Part shown: one piece after another, positions 6,794-63,391 of the stretch
Layout of the letters: every line of letters starts with the position of its first letter
Position numbering within the stretch: position 1 is the stretch's first letter
NCBI RefSeq assembly: GCF_003334305.1
Contig: NZ_QOWS01000001.1
Strand: one strand, 5' to 3'
Length of the DNA stretch: 64,000 nucleotides
From: Escherichia coli
GTDB taxonomy: Bacteria; Pseudomonadota; Gammaproteobacteria; Enterobacterales; Enterobacteriaceae
Notes under the pieces: model-generated
Database searches by the model: none
Told to the model about the DNA's origin: nothing
The model's input: the letters and a program-made list of their open reading frames with translations, nothing else
Translations under genes and position numbers: made by a program

Positions 6794-6950
6794 TAAAAGG
6801 TGTGTTACAGGGCAGAAATTTCCTGCCCTGTATCATTGGATGAGCGCAAAGGGAATGACCGGTTTGTAAATGTAATTTTATGAATTTAAATGGTTTTATC
6901 TTTCAGTAGAAACCTGAAACGTTCATCAAACACTAAGGTTATTTCCTCAA

Positions 6951-6976
6951 GGGCAGATTATTTTCTGCCCTTTTTT
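6951..6976 (+). terminator. Rho-independent terminator downstream of fruA
   Basis: GGGCAGA-ttatttt-TCTGCCC hairpin followed by TTTTTT. Confidence 0.6.
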
Positions 6977-10495: not shown

Positions 10496-11155
10496 TTACT
10501 GCATCATCCCGGAGAATTTATTCTCCGGGTCCATCTCCAGCGCCAGTCCTGACAACTGCTTTCTGTTTTTAATTAGATACCCTTTCTTGCTTTTAATTAA
10601 TAAACCGTCGTGAATGAATTGCGCGAGAACATATAAAAGATGTCGATAAGAAACGCCTAAATACTCTGCCGCTTGCGTATGCTTTTCGTGATAAAGATCA
10701 CCTTCCTGCGAGAGTAATATAAATGCTGCCAGGCGATTCACTAACGGAAATGATTGATTCTGAGTTAAAGAAACAATATTACGATAATTTTTATGACTTA
10801 AGGTGACGCAGAGTTTTCGTAAAAATAGCGTGTCGTTTAATAACCGCGGGCGGTAATGTTTCATAGGGAGCGCAAGGCACCAACACTCTTCAATAGCCTG
10901 CACCGCACGCGGTTCATGGTCTTTGTCAATTAACTCAATCTCGCCAATAAAACAGGGGGCGGCAAAGAAATCGATCAGCGACACGCGACCATTAGCTAGC
11001 GTGGCGTAAAGCCTGGCGCGGCCTCGCGTCAGGTAAAACAGCCAGGACGGCTGTTGCCCTTCCTGCACAATGTAGTCACGCGCTAAAAAATGAAACAGCC
11101 GCGTATCGGCTGAAACATCCGTTAAAAAGCAATCCTTAAACGCGGATTCACTCAT
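10496..11155 (-). CDS. yeiL: CRP/FNR-family transcriptional regulator YeiL, 219 aa
   Basis: ORF 10496..11194; start placed at internal ATG 11155 ([10 protein letters not shown]...) to give the expected 219 aa; cNMP-binding fold followed by an HTH. Confidence 0.85.
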
Positions 11156-19415: not shown

Positions 19416-19443
19416 AAGCCCTCTCAACCGAGAGGGCTTTTTC
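19416..19443 (+). terminator. Rho-independent terminator downstream of lysP
   Basis: AAGCCCTCTC-aacc-GAGAGGGCTT hairpin followed by TTTTT. Confidence 0.6.
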
Positions 19444-23490: not shown

Positions 23491-24648
23491 ATGGAGCGCA
23501 ACGTCACGCTCGATTTTGTTCGCGGCGTCGCCATTCTGGGGATCCTGCTATTAAACATCAGCGCCTTTGGGCTACCAAAGGCGGCTTATCTCAATCCCGC
23601 CTGGTACGGTGCTATTACGCCGCAGGATGCATGGACCTGGGCATTTCTTGATCTCATCGGCCAGGTGAAATTCCTCACGCTTTTTGCGCTGCTGTTTGGT
23701 GCTGGACTGCAAATGTTGCTGCCCCGTGGCAGACGCTGGATCCAGTCGCGGTTAACGCTGTTAGTCTTATTGGGCTTTATTCACGGTTTATTGTTCTGGG
23801 ACGGCGATATTCTGCTGGCTTACGGGCTGGTGGGCTTAATCTGCTGGCGGCTGGTGCGCGATGCGCCATCGGTAAAAAGCCTGTTTAATACCGGCGTCAT
23901 GCTTTATCTGGTGGGGCTTGGCGTTTTGCTGTTATTGGGGCTGATTTCCGACAGCCAGACCAGCCGCGCCTGGACGCCGGATGCATCGGCTATTTTGTAT
24001 GAAAAATACTGGAAGCTTCACGGCGGCGTTGATGCGATCAGTAATCGTGCCGATGGTGTTGGCAACAGTTTACTGGCACTGGGCGCACAGTATGGCTGGC
24101 AACTGGCTGGGATGATGCTCATTGGTGCGGCGCTGATGCGCAGCGGCTGGCTGAAAGGGCAGTTCAGCTTACGTCACTATCGTCGTACTGGTTTTGTGCT
24201 GGTGGCGATTGGGGTGACCATTAACCTTCCTGCCATCGCCCTGCAATGGCAGCTGGACTGGGCGTATCGCTGGTGTGCCTTCTTACTTCAAATGCCGCGG
24301 GAACTGAGTGCGCCGTTTCAGGCGATTGGCTATGCGTCGCTGTTTTATGGCTTCTGGCCGCAATTAAGCCGCTTTAAGCTGGTGCTGGCAATCGCCTGCG
24401 TCGGACGGATGGCGCTGACCAACTATCTATTGCAAACGCTGATTTGTACCACGCTTTTTTACCACCTCGGTTTGTTTATGCATTTTGATCGCCTGGAGCT
24501 GCTGGCGTTTGTTATTCCGGTATGGCTGGCGAATATCCTCTTCTCTGTTATCTGGCTGCGTTACTTCCGCCAGGGGCCGGTGGAATGGCTCTGGCGTCAG
24601 TTAACTTTGCGTGCTGCCGGAACGGCAATATCTAAAACATCAAGATAA
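23491..24648 (+). CDS. yeiB: Inner membrane protein YeiB (DUF418), 385 aa
   Basis: 385-aa polytopic membrane ORF immediately downstream of folE. Confidence 0.9.
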   Translation: MERNVTLDFVRGVAILGILLLNISAFGLPKAAYLNPAWYGAITPQDAWTWAFLDLIGQVKFLTLFALLFGAGLQMLLPRGRRWIQSRLTLLVLLGFIHGLLFWDGDILLAYGLVGLICWRLVRDAPSVKSLFNTGVMLYLVGLGVLLLLGLISDSQTSRAWTPDASAILYEKYWKLHGGVDAISNRADGVGNSLLALGAQYGWQLAGMMLIGAALMRSGWLKGQFSLRHYRRTGFVLVAIGVTINLPAIALQWQLDWAYRWCAFLLQMPRELSAPFQAIGYASLFYGFWPQLSRFKLVLAIACVGRMALTNYLLQTLICTTLFYHLGLFMHFDRLELLAFVIPVWLANILFSVIWLRYFRQGPVEWLWRQLTLRAAGTAISKTSR

Positions 24649-29715: not shown

Positions 29716-29730
29716 TGTGATTGTGGATAT

Positions 29731-29780
29731 TGCCGGATGCGCTGCATCCGGCAATCGGTGCCAAATGCCGGATGCGTCTC
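29731..29780. repeat. REP-like palindromic elements between convergent mglC and preA
   Basis: TGCCGGATGCGCTGCATCCGGCA and a second GCCGGATGCG unit. Confidence 0.5.
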
Positions 29781-37059: not shown

Positions 37060-37290
37060 CATATTGCCACTGGCGCAAGGAGCGCGCAGGGGGAGGACAA
37101 TCGCCTCCTCCCCCTGCACCCCCGGGCTCTGGCGAACAAAATCGCCGCTGCGCGGTACCTTCAGCTTATCCCCTTCGTCTACCGGGTCGGGCGCGAGGTA
37201 ACGTCCTTGTAAGACGCGCCCTCAGCCCACATCCATGTGGGCTGCCCCGGCCTTCGGGGAACGCTTCAGCGATTTTGACGCCACCAACAC
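37060..37290. repeat. GC-rich cluster of perfect hairpins in the dusC-yohP intergenic region (unclassified element)
   Basis: AGGGGGAGG-acaatcg-CCTCCCCCT, CAGCCCACA-tcca-TGTGGGCTG and CCCCGG-cctt-CGGGG stems; GC content well above the flanking AT-rich DNA. Confidence 0.35.
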
Positions 37291-51785: not shown

Positions 51786-53471
51786 ATGTACGATTTTAAT
51801 CTGGTGTTGCTGCTGCTTCAGCAGATGTGCGTTTTTTTAGTCATTGCGTGGTTAATGAGTAAAACGCCATTATTCATACCGTTAATGCAGGTCACGGTTC
51901 GTCTGCCGCATAAATTTCTCTGCTACATCGTCTTTTCCATCTTCTGCATCATGGGCACCTGGTTTGGGTTGCACATTGACGATTCTATTGCCAATACCCG
52001 TGCGATAGGCGCGGTAATGGGCGGCTTACTCGGCGGTCCGGTCGTCGGTGGGCTGGTTGGTCTGACCGGCGGCTTACATCGATATTCGATGGGGGGCATG
52101 ACCGCGCTAAGTTGCATGATCTCAACCATCGTTGAAGGATTGCTCGGCGGCCTGGTACACAGCATCCTGATCCGTCGCGGGCGCACTGATAAAGTCTTTA
52201 ACCCCATTACCGCCGGTGCCGTCACGTTCGTCGCTGAAATGGTGCAAATGCTGATCATCCTTGCGATCGCCCGACCTTATGAAGATGCGGTGCGTCTGGT
52301 GAGTAATATTGCTGCACCAATGATGGTCACCAATACCGTCGGCGCGGCGCTGTTTATGCGTATATTGCTCGATAAACGCGCGATGTTTGAAAAATACACT
52401 TCTGCTTTTTCTGCCACTGCGCTGAAAGTGGCAGCCTCGACGGAAGGCATTTTGCGACAGGGGTTTAACGAAGTGAACAGCATGAAAGTGGCTCAGGTGC
52501 TGTATCAGGAGCTGGATATTGGTGCAGTCGCGATTACCGATCGAGAGAAATTGCTGGCCTTTACCGGAATTGGTGACGACCACCATTTACCCGGCAAACC
52601 GATTTCTTCGACTTACACCTTAAAAGCGATTGAAACCGGTGAAGTGGTCTACGCTGATGGCAACGAAGTACCTTATCGTTGCTCTTTGCATCCGCAATGC
52701 AAACTGGGGTCGACGCTGGTAATTCCGTTGCGTGGCGAAAATCAGCGCGTGATGGGCACCATCAAATTGTATGAAGCCAAAAACCGTTTATTCAGTTCAA
52801 TAAACCGCACGCTGGGCGAGGGGATTGCGCAACTGCTTTCGGCGCAGATTCTTGCCGGGCAATATGAGCGGCAAAAAGCGATGCTCACCCAGTCAGAAAT
52901 CAAACTGCTTCACGCCCAGGTGAATCCTCATTTTTTGTTTAATGCGCTTAACACCATTAAAGCGGTGATCCGCCGCGACAGCGAACAGGCCAGCCAGCTG
53001 GTGCAGTATCTTTCCACTTTTTTCCGCAAAAACTTAAAGCGGCCTTCGGAGTTTGTTACTCTCGCCGACGAAATTGAACATGTGAACGCTTATCTGCAAA
53101 TTGAAAAGGCGCGCTTCCAGTCGCGGTTGCAGGTCAACATTGCTATTCCGCAAGAATTATCCCAGCAGCAATTGCCCGCGTTTACCCTGCAACCGATAGT
53201 GGAAAACGCCATTAAACATGGGACATCACAACTGCTGGATACAGGGCGAGTGGCAATCAGCGCCCGACGTGAGGGGCAACATTTGATGCTGGAGATCGAA
53301 GACAATGCCGGTTTGTATCAACCGGTAACCAATGCCAGTGGGCTGGGGATGAATCTGGTGGATAAGCGTTTACGTGAACGGTTTGGCGATGACTATGGAA
53401 TAAGCGTCGCCTGTGAGCCTGATAGTTACACCCGAATAACGTTACGACTACCATGGAGGGACGAGGCATGA
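51786..53471 (+). CDS. btsS: Sensor histidine kinase BtsS (YehU), 561 aa
   Basis: ORF 51771..53471; start at ATG 51786 ([11 protein letters not shown]); 5TM/GAF/His-kinase organisation ([15 protein letters not shown]). Confidence 0.9.
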
Positions 53472-54187
53472 TTAAAGTCTTAATTGTCGATGATGAACCG
53501 TTAGCACGGGAGAACCTGCGCGTATTTTTGCAGGAGCAGAGCGATATTGAAATCGTTGGAGAGTGTTCAAACGCCGTGGAAGGGATCGGCGCGGTGCATA
53601 AACTGCGCCCGGATGTGCTGTTTCTCGATATCCAGATGCCGCGCATCAGTGGTCTGGAAATGGTGGGGATGCTTGACCCGGAACATCGCCCGTATATTGT
53701 TTTTCTCACTGCGTTTGACGAATACGCTATTAAAGCCTTTGAAGAACATGCCTTTGATTATCTGCTGAAGCCAATTGATGAAGCGCGACTGGAGAAAACG
53801 CTGGCGCGATTGCGTCAGGAGCGCAGCAAGCAGGATGTTTCGCTGTTACCGGAAAATCAACAGGCGCTGAAATTTATCCCTTGTACGGGGCATAGTCGGA
53901 TTTATTTGCTGCAAATGAAAGATGTGGCATTTGTCAGCAGTCGGATGAGCGGTGTCTACGTTACCAGCCACGAAGGGAAAGAGGGCTTTACCGAATTGAC
54001 ATTACGTACCCTGGAAAGTCGTACACCACTACTGCGCTGCCATCGTCAGTATCTGGTTAACCTCGCGCATTTACAGGAGATTCGTCTGGAAGATAACGGC
54101 CAGGCCGAGTTGATTTTGCGTAATGGCTTAACCGTGCCGGTCAGCCGCCGTTATCTGAAAAGCTTAAAAGAGGCGATTGGCCTGTAA
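53468..54187 (+). CDS. btsR: LytTR-family response regulator BtsR (YehT), 239 aa
   Basis: ORF 53453..54187; start at 53468 ([11 protein letters not shown]), overlapping the btsS stop. Confidence 0.9.
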
Positions 54188-54233
54188 AAGACTGCTAAAA
54201 TGGCTTTTTGCCTCATCAACACCTGAAGGCCTC

Positions 54234-54704
54234 ATGCTAAGTAACGATATTCTGCGCAGCGTGCGCTACATTTTGAAAGCCAATAATAATGACCTGGTGC
54301 GTATTCTGGCGCTGGGTAATGTCGAAGCCACCGCGGAACAGATCGCCGTCTGGCTACGTAAAGAAGACGAAGAGGGTTTTCAGCGTTGTCCGGACATTGT
54401 TTTGTCGTCATTCCTCAACGGCCTGATTTATGAAAAACGCGGCAAGGATGAGTCTGCTCCGGCACTGGAGCCGGAACGTCGCATTAATAACAACATCGTG
54501 CTGAAAAAATTACGCATCGCGTTTTCGCTGAAAACCGATGACATTCTGGCTATCCTCACCGAACAGCAGTTCCGCGTTTCGATGCCGGAAATTACAGCGA
54601 TGATGCGCGCACCGGATCATAAAAACTTCCGCGAATGCGGCGATCAATTTTTACGTTATTTTCTGCGTGGACTGGCAGCGCGCCAGCATGTGAAGAAAAG
54701 CTAA
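54234..54704 (+). CDS. yehS: DUF1456 protein YehS, 156 aa
   Basis: ORF 54177..54704; start set at ATG 54234 (MLSNDILRSVRY). Confidence 0.85.
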   Translation: MLSNDILRSVRYILKANNNDLVRILALGNVEATAEQIAVWLRKEDEEGFQRCPDIVLSSFLNGLIYEKRGKDESAPALEPERRINNNIVLKKLRIAFSLKTDDILAILTEQQFRVSMPEITAMMRAPDHKNFRECGDQFLRYFLRGLAARQHVKKS

Positions 54705-54713
54705 GACGGGTAT

Positions 54714-54738
54714 GGCGGCCATGCGAAACATGGCCGCC
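54714..54738. terminator. Perfect 10-bp palindromic hairpin between convergent yehS and yehR (possible bidirectional terminator, no U-tract)
   Basis: GGCGGCCATG-cgaaa-CATGGCCGCC. Confidence 0.35.
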
Positions 54739-54744
54739 GACAGA

Positions 54745-55206
54745 TTATTTCACTTCTTTAAAACCAGCGGCTTTCATCACCAGTTCCATTTGCGCCATAG
54801 TGATACCTTTTTTGGCATCTTCAGCAGAAACGTTGATTCCTGAAATACCCTGCAGGGCTTTAAAATCCACTTTTTCCATATCGATAGTCACGTTTTCCTG
54901 CGCGTAGGTATCTGTATAGGTTAATTTTTCTTCAACACCCGCGATGTTTTTGTATTTGGCGCTTAACGGCTCAAGTGTCTTGGCAGCGTCTTCTTTGGTG
55001 GTTGCACCAATAGAAGCAAATTGAATTTTGGTTTCAGAAGATTGCTTAAGCACCTTGTCACCTTTGTAGACATAGGTAATGGCAATTTCAGTGCCGTTCA
55101 GATTGGCGCTGAATTTCTTCGATTCTTCTTTGTCACCGCAGCCAGCAAGAGAGAAAACCAGAACAGATGCAACAACGAGGGAAAACAGCTTATTGAAAGC
55201 CTTCAT
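54745..55206 (-). CDS. yehR: Lipoprotein YehR (DUF1307), 153 aa
   Basis: ORF 54745..55218; start at 55206 (MKAFNKLFSLVVASVLVFSLAGC lipobox). Confidence 0.85.
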   Translation of the reverse strand: MKAFNKLFSLVVASVLVFSLAGCGDKEESKKFSANLNGTEIAITYVYKGDKVLKQSSETKIQFASIGATTKEDAAKTLEPLSAKYKNIAGVEEKLTYTDTYAQENVTIDMEKVDFKALQGISGINVSAEDAKKGITMAQMELVMKAAGFKEVK

Positions 55207-55330
55207 GTAAAACTCCATTTTATTTAATCAAGAAACTGGTGACTCTCACCAGGGGCTATATAGAATATGCCTAATACCGTGACGTGAGCAGTCCGGAACT
55301 GGAGTAGAACTCTTAGTAAAAAGCACTATT

Positions 55331-57331
55331 TCATCCTTGTTGCTGAAGCATGGGGAATAATTGTTCGCAAAGTAAAACACCGTTATTCATTGCTTCTACC
55401 CGTGCCTCGCTTTCTGTATTACGAAATTGTCCCAACACATGTGCCAGCCGATAAAAACCGACCGCGGAGAGGTCATTCGCCAGCAACTCTGCCTGACTAA
55501 TAGCGCTCTGTTCCTGATAGCGCCAGCCGTTATGGAGCAGTTGAATAAGTAACGCCTGGCAGCGCATCAGCAACTGATGAGCGGTAGACGGCACAGGCAA
55601 AACGCTGGCAGAAGGTAGCGGTGCCACAGGCGCAGTTTCTGCGTCCAGCGCCCAGGCGCGGGTTTTTGTCATCATCACCCGTGGTTCCAGTGTCAATTGC
55701 CCATCAACAAAACTGACAAAGCCAGAAACCAGACTCACGGGGTCGTCTGTTTGTTGCAAAAGCGCCGCCATGCGTTCAACGGCAAAAGGAGAACAGGCAG
55801 ATGCCGGAAGGGATAACGTCAGGAGATTATCTTCACCTTCGCCGCTGATTACCTGCGCATCCAGCGTCTGGCGGCTGCTATCCCAACCGAGCGAAATACA
55901 CTCAGCGACCGGCAGAATAAATAAGTTATCGACCTGATTAAGAGGCCGTATGCAGGCGGGGGGACGCTGGCGTAAATATTCCCGCAAAGCCACAATGCCC
56001 GGCTGGCGTAACGGCGCGCTCAACATTTGCCAGGCATCAGGCGACAGCGGCACAACGCTGCTTAAGCGGTTGCGGGTAGCTAACAGCAGCTCGCCATCGG
56101 CACTGCGTTTTGCTGCTTGTGAAACAATTTGCCCACCCGCCAGTGCGCCAGCCTGAAAACTAAACAGCCGACGCGTAGCTGCCGGTGAGTTTTCCTGTTC
56201 ACTTCGCGGCCAACTGCGCGAAAGGTGCAAAATACTGCCGGTGTCGGGATCGGTAAACCAGATGCGTAAACCATAATGCTCAATATCCTGCCAGCAACGC
56301 ATACCTAAAGACACCAGCCGCAGATGATCAAGCTTTGCTTCTCCGGCAATGCCAGAGCCAACGACCGTGCGCCACGGCACAGGAGGAACTTCACCAACAC
56401 TGTCGCGCCGGGCCATCTCTTGTGCGCAATTTAATCGACTGTTTAATGCCGCAAGCTGACGTAAGCATTCTCCGGCATGATAGTGGCTGGCGCGGGCGTG
56501 GAAGGCATCAACGCTTGCCCGTAGCTGTCGTAGTGATTCACTCACCCATCGCCAGTTGCAGCGTTCCGCCGCCTGCTGCGCGCGACTGAAAGCGGCCTCG
56601 TAGTGAATAAGCGGCTGGCTGATGCCGCCCAGCCATAATGCCTGGCTTAATTGCTGAACATATTGACGACACGCGTTACCCTCGTCGTTGGCAAACGGAT
56701 CGTCAGATGATGTGACGTGTTCGCTGCGCATCTGCCAGATTAAATGAGTAAATTCCGCTTGCTGAGTTTTGGCCTCGACGAAGGCCTGCACAGCCAGTAC
56801 GACATGTTCGCAAAGTGTGCCTTCAATACAATCACAACGGGCGAAACGAATACTGCTGCGGGAATAAAAACGCACATCGCTCATCGGTAAGCGGGCAGAG
56901 GGAATTTCGCCCGGCGTACAGAACAACTCAATGGTGATGCCTTTAGCGACCAACGCCTGTGCGCGTTTGCGGGTGGCATCGGGCAGGGTAGCCAGTTCTT
57001 CCAGCCAGATTGCCGGATCCCACGCTTCTTCTTTTTCCGTAGGCTGGGCGGTAGTACAAAGTCGTTGATAACTTAACACAAGCATCACGCGATGACGGCA
57101 CATACCGCTGGCCCCGCAGCTGCACTGAGCCTCTTTCAGTGCCTGGCTGTTCGCCAGCTGGGTACGGACACCGTCACTGAAGGTGGCGATTAAAGCGCTG
57201 TTCTCATGGCTGATTTCCGGGACGTTGCCATTTTCCAGTTCCTTAAGACTGCGCTTAACAAAACCGGCATTGCTTAACGCCGTCAGGGCCTGCGGTGTCA
57301 GTTCTAATAATTCCGGACGTAGTGAATTCAT
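55331..57331 (-). CDS. yehQ: SWIM zinc-finger domain protein YehQ, 666 aa from this start
   Basis: ORF 55331..57355; start assigned to ATG 57331 because it forms an ATGA overlap with the yehP stop; Cys/His cluster near the N-terminus (CSCGASGMCRH). Confidence 0.85.
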   Translation of the reverse strand: MNSLRPELLELTPQALTALSNAGFVKRSLKELENGNVPEISHENSALIATFSDGVRTQLANSQALKEAQCSCGASGMCRHRVMLVLSYQRLCTTAQPTEKEEAWDPAIWLEELATLPDATRKRAQALVAKGITIELFCTPGEIPSARLPMSDVRFYSRSSIRFARCDCIEGTLCEHVVLAVQAFVEAKTQQAEFTHLIWQMRSEHVTSSDDPFANDEGNACRQYVQQLSQALWLGGISQPLIHYEAAFSRAQQAAERCNWRWVSESLRQLRASVDAFHARASHYHAGECLRQLAALNSRLNCAQEMARRDSVGEVPPVPWRTVVGSGIAGEAKLDHLRLVSLGMRCWQDIEHYGLRIWFTDPDTGSILHLSRSWPRSEQENSPAATRRLFSFQAGALAGGQIVSQAAKRSADGELLLATRNRLSSVVPLSPDAWQMLSAPLRQPGIVALREYLRQRPPACIRPLNQVDNLFILPVAECISLGWDSSRQTLDAQVISGEGEDNLLTLSLPASACSPFAVERMAALLQQTDDPVSLVSGFVSFVDGQLTLEPRVMMTKTRAWALDAETAPVAPLPSASVLPVPSTAHQLLMRCQALLIQLLHNGWRYQEQSAISQAELLANDLSAVGFYRLAHVLGQFRNTESEARVEAMNNGVLLCEQLFPMLQQQG

Positions 57332-58464
57332 GACTGAAGATTCTCCGCAAGCCATGATGCCAGCTCGCCCGGTGTCATGGCGGCTATTTGTGCGCCGACA
57401 TTTACCAGCGCCTGGGCCGTATCGTGGTCATAGCAAGGTGTTGCTGTGCTATCGAGCGCTGCCAGTCCCAGCACTTTGATGCAGCTCTGGACACACTTTT
57501 TCACCTGATGCGTCAGTAATGATGATGAACCCCCTTCGTAAAAATCGCTCACGAGGATAATGACGCTTTTCGCTGGTTGTTCAATAAGTTGCCGACCATA
57601 CTCCACGGCACTGGCGATATTGGTCCCGCCGCCCAACTGTACTTTCATTAATAACTCTACCGGATCGGCAACGTCTGCCGTGAGATCAACGACGCTTGTG
57701 TCAAACGCCACCAGATGGGTACGAATGCCGGGTAACTGCCACAAACAGGCCGCCATCACCGCAGAGTGGATCACCGAATCGACCATCGATCCGCTTTGAT
57801 CAACCAGTAAGACCAGTTGCCATTGTTCGCTTTGGCGTTTAATGCGGCTGTTAAAGCGGGGGGATTCGATATACAACTTGCCGTGTTGCGGGTGCCAGTG
57901 TTGCAGGTTGGCGCGCAGAGTACTTTTGAAATCAAAGTTTCGCGCCAGTGGAATAAATGAACGGCGACGGCGATCGCGGACACCAGAAAAAGCCTGACGA
58001 ACTTCCTTTGCCAGTCGCGCCATAATTTCTTCAACAACCTGGCGCACTATCTGGCGGGCGGCAGCCAGTACTTCGGGATTCATCAGATGTTTGGTGTGCA
58101 AAACGGCGCGTAGCAGGCTTTCCGAAGGCTGCATACGTTCCAGCACGTCGAGATTTGTCACCACATCTTCAATGCCGTAGCGCAGTACGGCATCGCTTTC
58201 CAGCCGCTCAATCACCTGTTGCGGAAACAGCGTGTGGATACTGTTGATCCACTCAGGAGTGGTGAGATTTGAGCCACCTAATCCACCAGAGCGTTCACCA
58301 CGCTGGAGCCGTTCAGGATCGCGCCCATACAGCCACTCCAGCGCGTGATCTATCTGCCGGGCGTTGTCATCCAGCCCACAAAGCGTCGTTTCTGCCGCTT
58401 CGCCAAGAATTAATCGCCAGCGTTGTAGCTCACGGGTGGTCAGAAGATCGTTCAGTTCAGACAT
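57328..58464 (-). CDS. yehP: von Willebrand factor A (VWA) domain protein YehP, 378 aa
   Basis: ORF 57328..58692; start at 58464 (MSELNDLLTTRELQRW); VWA/MIDAS-like region (LLVDQSGSM). Confidence 0.88.
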   Translation of the reverse strand: MSELNDLLTTRELQRWRLILGEAAETTLCGLDDNARQIDHALEWLYGRDPERLQRGERSGGLGGSNLTTPEWINSIHTLFPQQVIERLESDAVLRYGIEDVVTNLDVLERMQPSESLLRAVLHTKHLMNPEVLAAARQIVRQVVEEIMARLAKEVRQAFSGVRDRRRRSFIPLARNFDFKSTLRANLQHWHPQHGKLYIESPRFNSRIKRQSEQWQLVLLVDQSGSMVDSVIHSAVMAACLWQLPGIRTHLVAFDTSVVDLTADVADPVELLMKVQLGGGTNIASAVEYGRQLIEQPAKSVIILVSDFYEGGSSSLLTHQVKKCVQSCIKVLGLAALDSTATPCYDHDTAQALVNVGAQIAAMTPGELASWLAENLQS

Positions 58465-61834: not shown

Positions 61835-61944
61835 ATATTCATCCCTGAAATGTATTAATGAAATAAACGATATTTTACGCGCAATAAATGTTTGGCGCAT
61901 TAGTTGTTTGAGCAAAAAATATCTGGAAAGCAGATCGCAGTAAA

Positions 61945-62028
61945 TAAAAAAACCTGCTGGTGAGGCAGGTTCTTTTATTTACTATTTTCAGGCCTAACAC
62001 CACAGCCTGTGCAACATCGTGTTCCAAC
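61945..62028 (-). ncRNA. Candidate antisense sRNA antitoxin (OrzO/OrzP-type), about 84 nt
   Basis: Minus-strand TTGCAA-17 bp-TATAAT promoter (-10 at plus 62035-62040); predicted 5' end near 62028; strong terminator (AACCTGC-loop-GCAGGTT then TTTTT on minus); first ~20 nt complementary to the toxin leader at 62175-62194. Confidence 0.6.
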
Positions 62029-62034
62029 GAACGA

Positions 62035-62085
62035 ATTATAACCACGGCTGGACCCCGTTGCAATTAAGATAATGAGATTTATAAT
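62035..62085. promoter_or_regulatory. Back-to-back sigma70-like promoters sharing one palindromic -35 hexamer (toxin mRNA rightward, antisense sRNA leftward)
   Basis: Shared TTGCAA at 62058-62063; plus-strand TATAAT at 62080-62085 (16-bp spacer); minus-strand TATAAT at 62035-62040 (17-bp spacer). Confidence 0.55.
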
Positions 62086-62266
62086 CCAGACCGTTGGGAC
62101 GTTGCGCCGGATCGAACCTATTTCAAGTCCTGGCTACCGGACGGGGGGTGCTGCAGGTGGTGCCCTGATCCGGAGTGCAACATCGTGGTCCAACATACGT
62201 AAACCAGTATCGACAGGCAGTGTAAGGGTAAGGTGCTGGTGTTGCGCTCCTTAATAAGGAGAGCGG

Positions 62267-62356
62267 ATGGACTCGCTGACACAAAAGTTAACCGTGCTCA
62301 TTGCTGTACTGGAGCTATTAGTGGCTCTGTTACGGTTGATTGATTTGTTGAAGTAA
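62267..62356 (+). CDS. zorO/zorP: 29-aa hydrophobic peptide, type I toxin candidate (ZorO/ZorP-type)
   Basis: ATG 62267, AAGGAG 5 nt upstream; MDSLTQKLTVLIAVLELLVALLRLIDLLK, one predicted TM helix with charged ends; about 174-nt leader from the predicted start near 62093. Family name is from memory; which copy is zorO and which zorP is not resolved. Confidence 0.75.
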   Translation: MDSLTQKLTVLIAVLELLVALLRLIDLLK

Positions 62357-62377
62357 CGGGCAAATTGAAACGCATCT

Positions 62378-62402
62378 AAGGGGGAAAACCGCTTCCCCCT
62401 TT
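62378..62402 (+). terminator. Terminator hairpin of toxin mRNA copy 1
   Basis: AAGGGGGAA-aaccgc-TTCCCCCTT perfect 9-bp stem 22 nt after the stop; short U-tract. Confidence 0.5.
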
Positions 62403-62554
62403 AATAAAATGATTACTGTTTTTATTAATTCATCATATAACTCATTTTTATTTATAAATTCATCGATTTTATATTCAACGCACCATTTGACCGGGATGTG
62501 AATATTTATGTTGGGCTATTGGCAAAAAATATCTGGAAAGTAGATCGCAGAAAA

Positions 62555-62636
62555 TAAAAAAACCTGCTGGTGAGGCAGGTTCTTTTATTTACTACAGTGA
62601 CGCTAACTTGCTGATTGTGCAACATTTCGTACCAAC
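62555..62636 (-). ncRNA. Candidate antisense sRNA antitoxin, copy 2 (OrzO/OrzP-type), about 82 nt
   Basis: Minus-strand -10 TATAAT at plus 62643-62648 and shared -35 TTGCAA at 62666-62671; terminator 62561-62581 with U-tract; 5' region complementary to the copy-2 leader at 62783-62802. Confidence 0.6.
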
Positions 62637-62642
62637 GAATAA

Positions 62643-62693
62643 ATTATAACCATATCCACACTCCATTGCAATTCAGTGAGTGAGATTTATAAT
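62643..62693. promoter_or_regulatory. Back-to-back promoters of copy 2 sharing a palindromic -35
   Basis: TTGCAA at 62666-62671; plus-strand TATAAT 62688-62693; minus-strand TATAAT at plus 62643-62648. Confidence 0.5.
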
Positions 62694-62874
62694 CCTGCCC
62701 GTTGGGAGGTTGTGCCGGATCGGACCAATTTTAAGTCCTGGCTGCCGGACGGGTGGTGCCGCAGGCGGTGCCCTGATCCGGAGAGCAACGTTTCGTACCA
62801 ACATACGTAAACCAGTATCAACAGGCAGTGTAAGGGTAAGGTGCTGGTGTTGCGCTCCTTAATAAGGAGAGCGG

Positions 62875-62964
62875 ATGGACACGCTGACACAAAAGTTAAC
62901 CGTGCTCATTGCCGTACTGGAGTTATTAGTGGCTCTGTTACGGTTGATTGATTTGTTGAAGTAA
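62875..62964 (+). CDS. zorO/zorP: 29-aa hydrophobic peptide, type I toxin candidate copy 2 (ZorO/ZorP-type)
   Basis: ATG 62875 with AAGGAG upstream; MDTLTQKLTVLIAVLELLVALLRLIDLLK, differing from copy 1 only at residue 3 (S to T). Confidence 0.75.
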   Translation: MDTLTQKLTVLIAVLELLVALLRLIDLLK

Positions 62965-62985
62965 CGGGCAAATTGAAACGCATCT

Positions 62986-63010
62986 AAGGGGGAATACCGT
63001 TTCCCCCTTT
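62986..63010 (+). terminator. Terminator hairpin of toxin mRNA copy 2
   Basis: AAGGGGGAA-taccgt-TTCCCCCTT stem. Confidence 0.5.
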
Positions 63011-63018
63011 AAGAAAGC

Positions 63019-63073
63019 TATACTCGTCATACTTCAAGTTGCATGTGCTGCGACTTTAATTATCTAGAGTATA
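63019..63073. repeat. Truncated ERIC-like element abutting the yehK 3' end
   Basis: TATACTCGTCATACTTCAAGTTGCATGTGCTGCG ... AATTATCTAGAGTATA: ERIC terminal arms with the central part missing. Confidence 0.55.
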
Positions 63074-63391
63074 TTATTCTATTTCTTGGTTGAATATATT
63101 CTGTAGTTCACGATTAAAAATTGCTATTACAGTTTCAGGTGATTCACCTCGTAATTTCCGCTCATCAATACACTCATCTCTTATATAAATCAACGCATCA
63201 TTTATTAGCGGGTCAGCATCTTCTCGATCACGTTGATGAAATGTTGGATGTAGCCGGAATCGCTCCAGTCGATAGACGGAACCTGTAAATAATTCAGAGC
63301 ATTTATGGATCTCAAGTCTGAAGGAAAACGGATCTTCAGGTACAGGGACCTCATAATCGTAAATAGCAACTAGCTCTTTTTGCACGATCAT
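63074..63391 (-). CDS. yehK: Uncharacterised protein YehK, 105 aa
   Basis: 105-aa ORF (MIVQKELVAIYDYEVPVPEDPF...) between yehI and the repeat island. Confidence 0.85.
   Translation of the reverse strand: MIVQKELVAIYDYEVPVPEDPFSFRLEIHKCSELFTGSVYRLERFRLHPTFHQRDREDADPLINDALIYIRDECIDERKLRGESPETVIAIFNRELQNIFNQEIE

Follow-up and report, generated by a model that had tools for sequence, protein, structure and literature searches.

A maintained RNA hairpin between the convergent genes yehS and yehR of Escherichia coli, probably a protective 3' stem-loop shared by both mRNAs

In intrinsic termination, the U residues closest to the stem matter most. SEnd-seq work by Ju et al. in 2019 reportedly described bidirectional terminators between convergent genes. 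Rho-dependent transcripts have been found to end directly downstream of stable stem-loops that have neither a U-tract nor an upstream A-tract (Dar & Sorek 2018, NAR, PMC6061677). Sequences downstream of these stem-loops show a mild enrichment of C over G, the ends are made by PNPase/RNase II trimming, and a switch between Rho-dependent and intrinsic 3' ends was considered conceivable simply through the uridine content past the stem (Dar & Sorek 2018, PMC6061677). Work from the Liu laboratory reported prevalent E. coli bidirectional terminators between convergent genes that differ from intrinsic terminators, encode a hairpin needed for defined collision sites, act independently of Rho and are most effective at highly expressed gene pairs (Wang et al. 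2022, 10.1101/2022.10.23.513370). REP elements, finally, are extragenic palindromes of 3' UTRs, also found between convergent genes, which limit read-through and protect the upstream mRNA (10.64898/2026.03.23.713779).

Here we describe a hairpin between yehS and yehR in a 64,000-nt stretch of E. coli DNA (the window, meaning the whole stretch analysed), which diverges from K-12 by ~1.6% over the aligned 60 kb. The gene order is mlrA, btsS, btsR and yehS, followed by yehR, yehQ and yehP on the opposite strand; the names yehS and yehR are taken from the RefSeq annotation of 100%-identical E. coli sequences. Downstream of btsS-btsR, yehS (54234..54704, + strand) encodes a protein of the DUF1456/YehS family (156 aa), and the convergent yehR (54745..55206, - strand) encodes a YehR-family lipoprotein (153 aa). 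Their stop codons, TAA at 54702-54704 on the + strand for yehS and the complement of 54745-54747 for yehR, enclose a 40-bp gap (54705-54744). Farther along, yehQ (SWIM zinc-finger family, window 55331-57355, - strand) has an uninterrupted ORF of 674 aa; the annotation of K-12 C3026 lists a yehQ pseudogene containing an internal stop.

The initial annotation had placed a palindrome in this gap, and both a direct reading of 54700-54760 (gctaagacgggtatGGCGGCCATGcgaaaCATGGCCGCCgacagattatttcac) and an inverted-repeat search confirm it. The two 10-nt arms, to which no strand is assigned, are 100% complementary and lie 5 nt apart: the 5' arm (54714..54723) reads GGCGGCCATG and is present in both mRNAs once transcribed, the loop (54724..54728) reads CGAAA on the + strand and UUUCG on the - strand, and the 3' arm (54729..54738) reads CATGGCCGCC. 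The stem begins 9 nt past the yehS stop and, on the - strand, 6 nt past the yehR stop, and it is the sole inverted repeat detected in 54500-54950. Folded as RNA, the element reaches -19.8 kcal/mol on the + strand and -21.0 kcal/mol on the - strand (z ~ -5.5), a stability attained by 0 of 200 shuffles, with a stem of 10-11 bp containing 8 G:C pairs and a loop of 3-5 nt. An Rfam scan of 53000-56500 (E<=10) returned three chance-level matches, none at the hairpin, and a promoter scan detected no promoter within ~500 bp of it. A short ORF that starts inside the hairpin (54712-54843, 43 aa) was treated as spurious because it overlaps yehR in antisense and has no support.

Perfect inverted repeats of at least 10 bp with a loop of 3-8 nt occur at five loci of the 64-kb window, against 0.47 expected under a first-order Markov model, and the 25-mer pattern of the hairpin, with up to three mismatches, matches once against 0.02 expected. 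Among the other perfect inverted repeats (arms of 9-12 bp), several have no T-tract (6806-6832, 10508-10529, 23562-23583, 37086-37117 and 37223-37244), so that U-less hairpins are common here; those at 6949-6972 and 19416-19439 have one, and a REP-like GCCGGATG lies at 29729-29755. The window also contains a tandem direct duplication of ~608-610 bp (61912-63100), whose matching parts are 62008-62307 and 62616-62915 (87%) and 61912-61984 and 62522-62594 (97%). Each copy carries a hairpin, AAGGGGGAA-(A/T)ACCG(C/T)-TTCCCCCTT (62378-62401 and 62986-63009), together with a terminator-like AAAAAAACCTGCTGGTGAGGCAGGTTCTTTTATTT, and K-12 appears to align with one copy only.

The stretches flanking the yehS/yehR stem are poor in U in the window allele. 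Two of the eight nucleotides after the stem are U on each strand; within the first 5-6 nt there is no U on the yehS strand and a single one on the yehR strand. The tail that follows the hairpin for yehR (54705..54713, - strand) reads AUACCCGUC, which is not a U-tract, and the K-12 allele has AAUUUUUU at this place. The upstream flank, GACGGGTAT, contains no A-tract. On the yehS strand a U-rich stretch, AUUAUUUCACUUCUUU, begins 6 nt past the stem and corresponds to the antisense of the last codons of yehR. A terminator scan of the window called the hairpin on neither strand; the claim that neither strand carries a U-tract thus holds for this allele, and a hairpin of this kind explains a miss by a terminator predictor that requires one. 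The K-12 allele has U at six of the eight positions past the stem in the yehR direction. The scan of K-12 listed its hairpin on the yehS strand only, although UUUUUU follows the stem on the yehR strand, and this U-tract was therefore judged from the sequence itself rather than from the scan.

For K-12, the position of the yehS 3' end can be read from published data. The MG1655 Term-seq study of Adams et al. 2021 (eLife, PMC7815308) records a 3' end at 2211688 (-) that is primary for yehS and antisense to yehR, averages 48,943 reads and has the context GAAAAAAGGCTAAAAAATTGGCGGTCATGTTTAGAGCATGACCGCCAACCGATTATTTCAC (Supplementary file 1). The context strings of that study are 61 nt long, and calibration on the rows for thrL, sgrS, dapD and 20763 places the 3' end at nucleotide 51; the K-12 yehS mRNA therefore ends ...CAUGACCGCCAACCG, 5 nt past the homologous stem. 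A 3' end at the hairpin was the check named beforehand for this element, and for yehS in K-12 it is borne out. By homology, the steady-state yehS mRNA of the window strain is predicted to end at ~54743, after GACAG (54739..54743, + strand). For yehR, the K-12 listing contains no 3' end in any of the three conditions (PMC7815308).

Data from the same study bear on what polymerases do beyond this end. Direct RNA-seq with and without bicyclomycin (BCM) located Rho termination in a region at 2211443 (-), which is antisense to yehR and follows the yehS end at a distance of 245 nt (PMC7815308, Supplementary file 2). Coverage upstream and downstream of it was 101 and 31 without BCM and 185 and 261 with BCM (PMC7815308), and the Rho score of 4.6 (p = 7.9e-13) was computed over 800-nt windows, so that the Rho-sensitive RNA could partly come from another antisense start inside yehR. 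Together with the mapped 3' end, the bicyclomycin data indicate that on the yehS strand polymerases pass the K-12 hairpin and are stopped by Rho in antisense yehR, while the abundant end is at the hairpin. We found no paper on the hairpin itself, the K-12 yehS end being known only as a supplementary-table row (PMC7815308). The TERMITe supplements hold no yehS/yehR entry, the literature that names yehS and yehR together is silent on their 3' ends, and no usable table turned up for Term-seq of EHEC, in which the window-type allele would be represented; the arms of the O157 hairpin are identical to those of the window allele.

The locus is present in all 5426 complete E. coli genomes surveyed, and its 40-bp gap falls into two allele classes that split them exactly: 3999 genomes (74%) are of the window type, 3029 of them identical across all 40 bp, and 1427 (26%) are of the K-12 type. 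In K-12 and W the gap reads AAAATT-GGCGGTCATG-TTTAGAG-CATGACCGCC-AACCGA. Relative to the window allele, both arms are altered at stem position 6, where T:A replaces C:G, the loop has 7 instead of 5 nt and the upstream flank is now an A-tract. Read in the yehR direction, the K-12 allele ends ...CAUGACCGCCAAUUUUUUAGCC and the window allele ...CAUGGCCGCCAUACCCGUCUUAGC; judged by its letters, the former has the make-up of a textbook intrinsic terminator. A U-less flank, GAC(G/A)GGT(A/C)T, occurs in every other Escherichia species or clade sampled (E. albertii, E. whittamii, Escherichia sp. MOD1-EC7003 and E1V33, and strains E69 and SCPM-O-B-8794), which indicates that the window type is ancestral and the U-tract allele derived. 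Strains '35' and CREC_5 carry intermediate or mosaic forms.

The divergence between the two alleles is sharply localized. The window strain and K-12 show 24 differences over the 985 nt of yehS, gap and yehR, 19 of them inside 54695-54742. In the blastn alignment this 48-bp patch has 17 mismatches, which places it in the top three for divergence out of 59,659 stretches of that length (mean 0.76 mismatches; 99.9th percentile, 15). The K-12/W lineage would have acquired these ~17-19 changes as a burst within 48 bp, a compensatory pair retaining the stem. The allele pair fits the published remark on switching by uridine content, and a tentative, rather doubtful reading is that the yehS/yehR gap represents a natural within-species switch of terminator mechanism, in which an ancestral U-less hairpin was rebuilt with a U6 tail for yehR in the K-12/W lineage. 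If this were true and due to selection, be it on yehR/yehS expression or on head-on polymerase traffic, the alleles should be measurably different in how far they let polymerase read through, how much they depend on Rho and how stable their mRNAs are; instead of selection, relaxed drift or a patch of micro-recombination may account for the change. Other 48-bp patches highly divergent from K-12 (14-20 mismatches) lie at ~28024, 10420, 56562 and 37021. The one at ~10420 extends over the end of a gene and the gap that follows, ahead of a convergent ORF, a hint that rapid divergence of such gaps may be general.

Within Escherichia, it is the pairing of the arms that is conserved. In an alignment of 13 Escherichia sequences, 99.3% of the stem cells are paired; shifting the 3' partners by 1-3 columns lowers this share to 20-59%. 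Changes on both sides are seen in two of the 11 stem pairs, positions 3 and 6 being compensatory: a C:G pair became U:A in the K-12 lineage and another became A:U in strain E69, whose arms, GGAGGCCATGC/GCATGGCCTCC, provide a second, independent compensatory pair. Loop and flanks are variable, in keeping with loops such as CGCAAA, CAAAAA, CGAAGAG and TTTAA between intact arms in other strains, and the spacer measures 5, 6 or 7 nt among strains that keep the arms. This substitution pattern shows that the stem is under selection for base pairing.

The same position is occupied by a hairpin well beyond Escherichia. All 23 lineages with a convergent yehS/YehR-like gap of 37-59 bp have one that nearly fills the gap, with folding energies of -17 to -28 kcal/mol, and its sequence is often unrelated from lineage to lineage. 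Citrobacter has GGCGACC.../...GGTCGCC (GGCGACC(A)CGAT.../...ATCGGGTCGCC), with one internal mismatch in the stem, so that these hairpins were missed by the search without bulges and recovered by RNAfold; other unrelated pairs are GACGACCAGGC/GCCTGGTCGTC, GCCCGGCA/TGCCGGGC and CCCGGGC/GCCCGGG. The variable spacing, the complementary substitutions and the turnover of sequence at a fixed position point to an RNA structure rather than to a protein operator or a repeat family. Collectively, these observations identify the palindrome as a real, evolutionarily maintained RNA hairpin.

Rearranged loci offer further observations. In E. coli KTa005 (NZ_CP147084.1; L002 3146-4170), an IS1X2 element has entered the locus at the yehR stop codon, right behind ...CATGACCGCCAACCGATTATT. 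The strain keeps the hairpin beside yehS, and metG follows directly after the IS, where K-12 has yehR through yehI and a DUF4132 pseudogene in between. The survey of other Enterobacteriaceae (L013-L086) covered the first 110 nt past yehS. Where yehR is missing (Enterobacter, Kluyvera, Lelliottia, Leclercia and other genera), the gene facing yehS ends TTATTTCACCTGCTGACC and may be metG, and the gap after yehS contains REP-like sequences and a canonical bidirectional terminator, AAAAAAGCCGGAGAnnnnTCTCCGGCTTTTT. Downstream of yehS, Salmonella arizonae/diarizonae has REP-like palindromes and only a fragment resembling yehR.

We consider it probable that both mRNAs share the hairpin as a stem-loop of the Rho-dependent type, which defines their 3' ends and blocks exonucleases. 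The yehS (+) and yehR (-) transcripts would both cross the palindrome, and each would thereby gain a stable, GC-rich stem-loop of 10-11 bp 6-9 nt past its stop codon; since the palindrome is self-complementary, one element serves both genes. Efficient release of RNA polymerase by the hairpin alone is improbable in the window allele, given the missing U-tract. Polymerase probably continues into the untranslated antisense of the opposing gene, where Rho would terminate it. The tail would then be degraded by the 3'-to-5' exonucleases PNPase and RNase II as far as the hairpin, which would block them and leave a sharp, stable mRNA 3' end. On the yehS strand, the untranslated, U-rich RNA antisense to yehR (54739..54938, + strand), in which C exceeds G, is a candidate zone for Rho loading and termination: over the 200 nt past the hairpin the C/G ratio is 1.3-1.75, the window having a median of 1.0 and a 90th percentile of 1.53. 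Past the hairpin on the yehR strand, C exceeds G only in the first ~80 nt. Both the same behaviour in the window allele and for yehR and the exonuclease trimming itself we infer by analogy with the K-12 yehS end and the published stem-loops.

The alternatives differ in where they would have the hairpin act. It could itself be the site of termination, as a non-canonical bidirectional terminator that is either weakly intrinsic, with a distal U-rich tail, or a pausing element of the collision type, at which a hairpin-paused polymerase would block the oncoming one until trailing polymerases dislodge it. Its place exactly between the convergent stop codons, 9 and 6 nt away, kept across genera, suits this proposal, and the K-12 yehS 3' end at +5 also fits termination near the stem. 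The U-rich stretch 6 nt downstream on the yehS strand works in the same direction, and because the K-12 allele was scored as terminator-like on that strand, some intrinsic termination may take place at the hairpin. The scarcity of U in the first 5-6 nt past the stem (none for yehS, one for yehR) speaks against the intrinsic form. The collision form sits uneasily with the Rho-sensitive read-through downstream on the K-12 yehS strand, the class having been described as Rho-independent, and with its preference for highly expressed pairs, given that yehR yielded no called 3' end in three conditions. We regard termination at the hairpin itself as possible but unlikely.

That a dimeric DNA-binding protein, such as a regulator linked to BtsS/BtsR, might bind the palindrome as DNA is suggested by the perfect 10-bp dyad adjoining the two-component genes btsS-btsR, and a protein binding site had been offered as an option in the initial annotation. 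A palindromic operator requires conserved half-sites at a fixed spacing; here the half-sites lie 5, 6 or 7 bp apart among strains that keep the arms, and arm changes come as complementary pairs that preserve pairing and alter both half-site sequences. Other genera have an unrelated hairpin sequence at the same position, and the site lies between two stop codons rather than near a promoter. For BtsR/YehT, the binding site consists of a directly repeated ACC[G/A]CT[C/T]A, and the motif in this form is absent from the window allele. The data thus lend no support to the option of a binding site, and we judge it very improbable. Just as remote is a dispersed REP/BIME-like repeat or a chance palindrome devoid of its own function, even if E. 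coli 3' UTRs often contain REP hairpins and REP-like sequences follow yehS in Salmonella and several other genera. Members of the REP/BIME families exist in many dispersed copies with a REP consensus, and the yehS/yehR element is single-copy (a median of 1 place per genome across the 5426 E. coli genomes; one match in the window with three mismatches allowed) and therefore not a REP. As to chance, ~0.5 such palindromes are expected per 64 kb, the stem is compensatory and no Rfam family matches at the hairpin.

The protective stem-loop shared by both mRNAs is accordingly the reading we prefer, and it agrees with one part of what had been proposed from the letters of the locus, namely a bidirectional stabilizing hairpin rather than a classical terminator. 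The stabilizing, bidirectional part is favoured by the compensatory stem, the drifting loop, the missing U-tract, the K-12 yehS end and the Rho region. The words 'not a classical terminator' have to be restricted to the window-type allele, because 26% of E. coli genomes, K-12 included, have a U6 tail in the yehR direction. For annotation, the palindrome would mark the ends of the yehS transcript, downstream of btsS-btsR, and of the yehR transcript. It would also offer a clean case in which a single self-complementary element serves two convergent genes and compensatory evolution is visible within one species, and the natural pair of alleles with and without a U-tract could serve, in an isogenic background, for a comparison between intrinsic and Rho-assisted formation of 3' ends.

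Set against the described systems, the window hairpin shares with canonical intrinsic terminators a GC-rich stem-loop (~5-14 bp, short loop) of typical length, loop size and energy, and lacks their U-rich tract of ~7-8 nt directly 3' of the stem; the K-12 allele has acquired this feature for yehR, AAAAAA upstream of the stem providing the U6 tail. Canonical bidirectional intrinsic terminators are exemplified by AAAAAAGCCGGAGA...TCTCCGGCTTTTT, found in the gap of genera where yehS faces a different gene. Like REP elements, the hairpin is an extragenic palindrome in a 3' UTR between convergent genes; unlike them, it is non-repetitive, consists of a single unit and shows no match to the REP consensus. 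With collision-type terminators it has in common a hairpin between convergent stop codons without canonical intrinsic features, but that class produces overlapping sharp 3' ends of both transcripts, whereas at yehS/yehR only the yehS end is documented, in K-12. With the protective stem-loops of Dar & Sorek the window hairpin shares a stable stem without a U-rich tail or an upstream A-tract, and its K-12 homologue adds a 3' end a few nucleotides past the stem and bicyclomycin-sensitive read-through; the difference is that one palindrome would here serve two convergent mRNAs. Most likely, then, the behaviour of the hairpin is closest to that of the protective 3' stem-loops of Rho-dependent transcripts, an ordinary and well-described kind of element.
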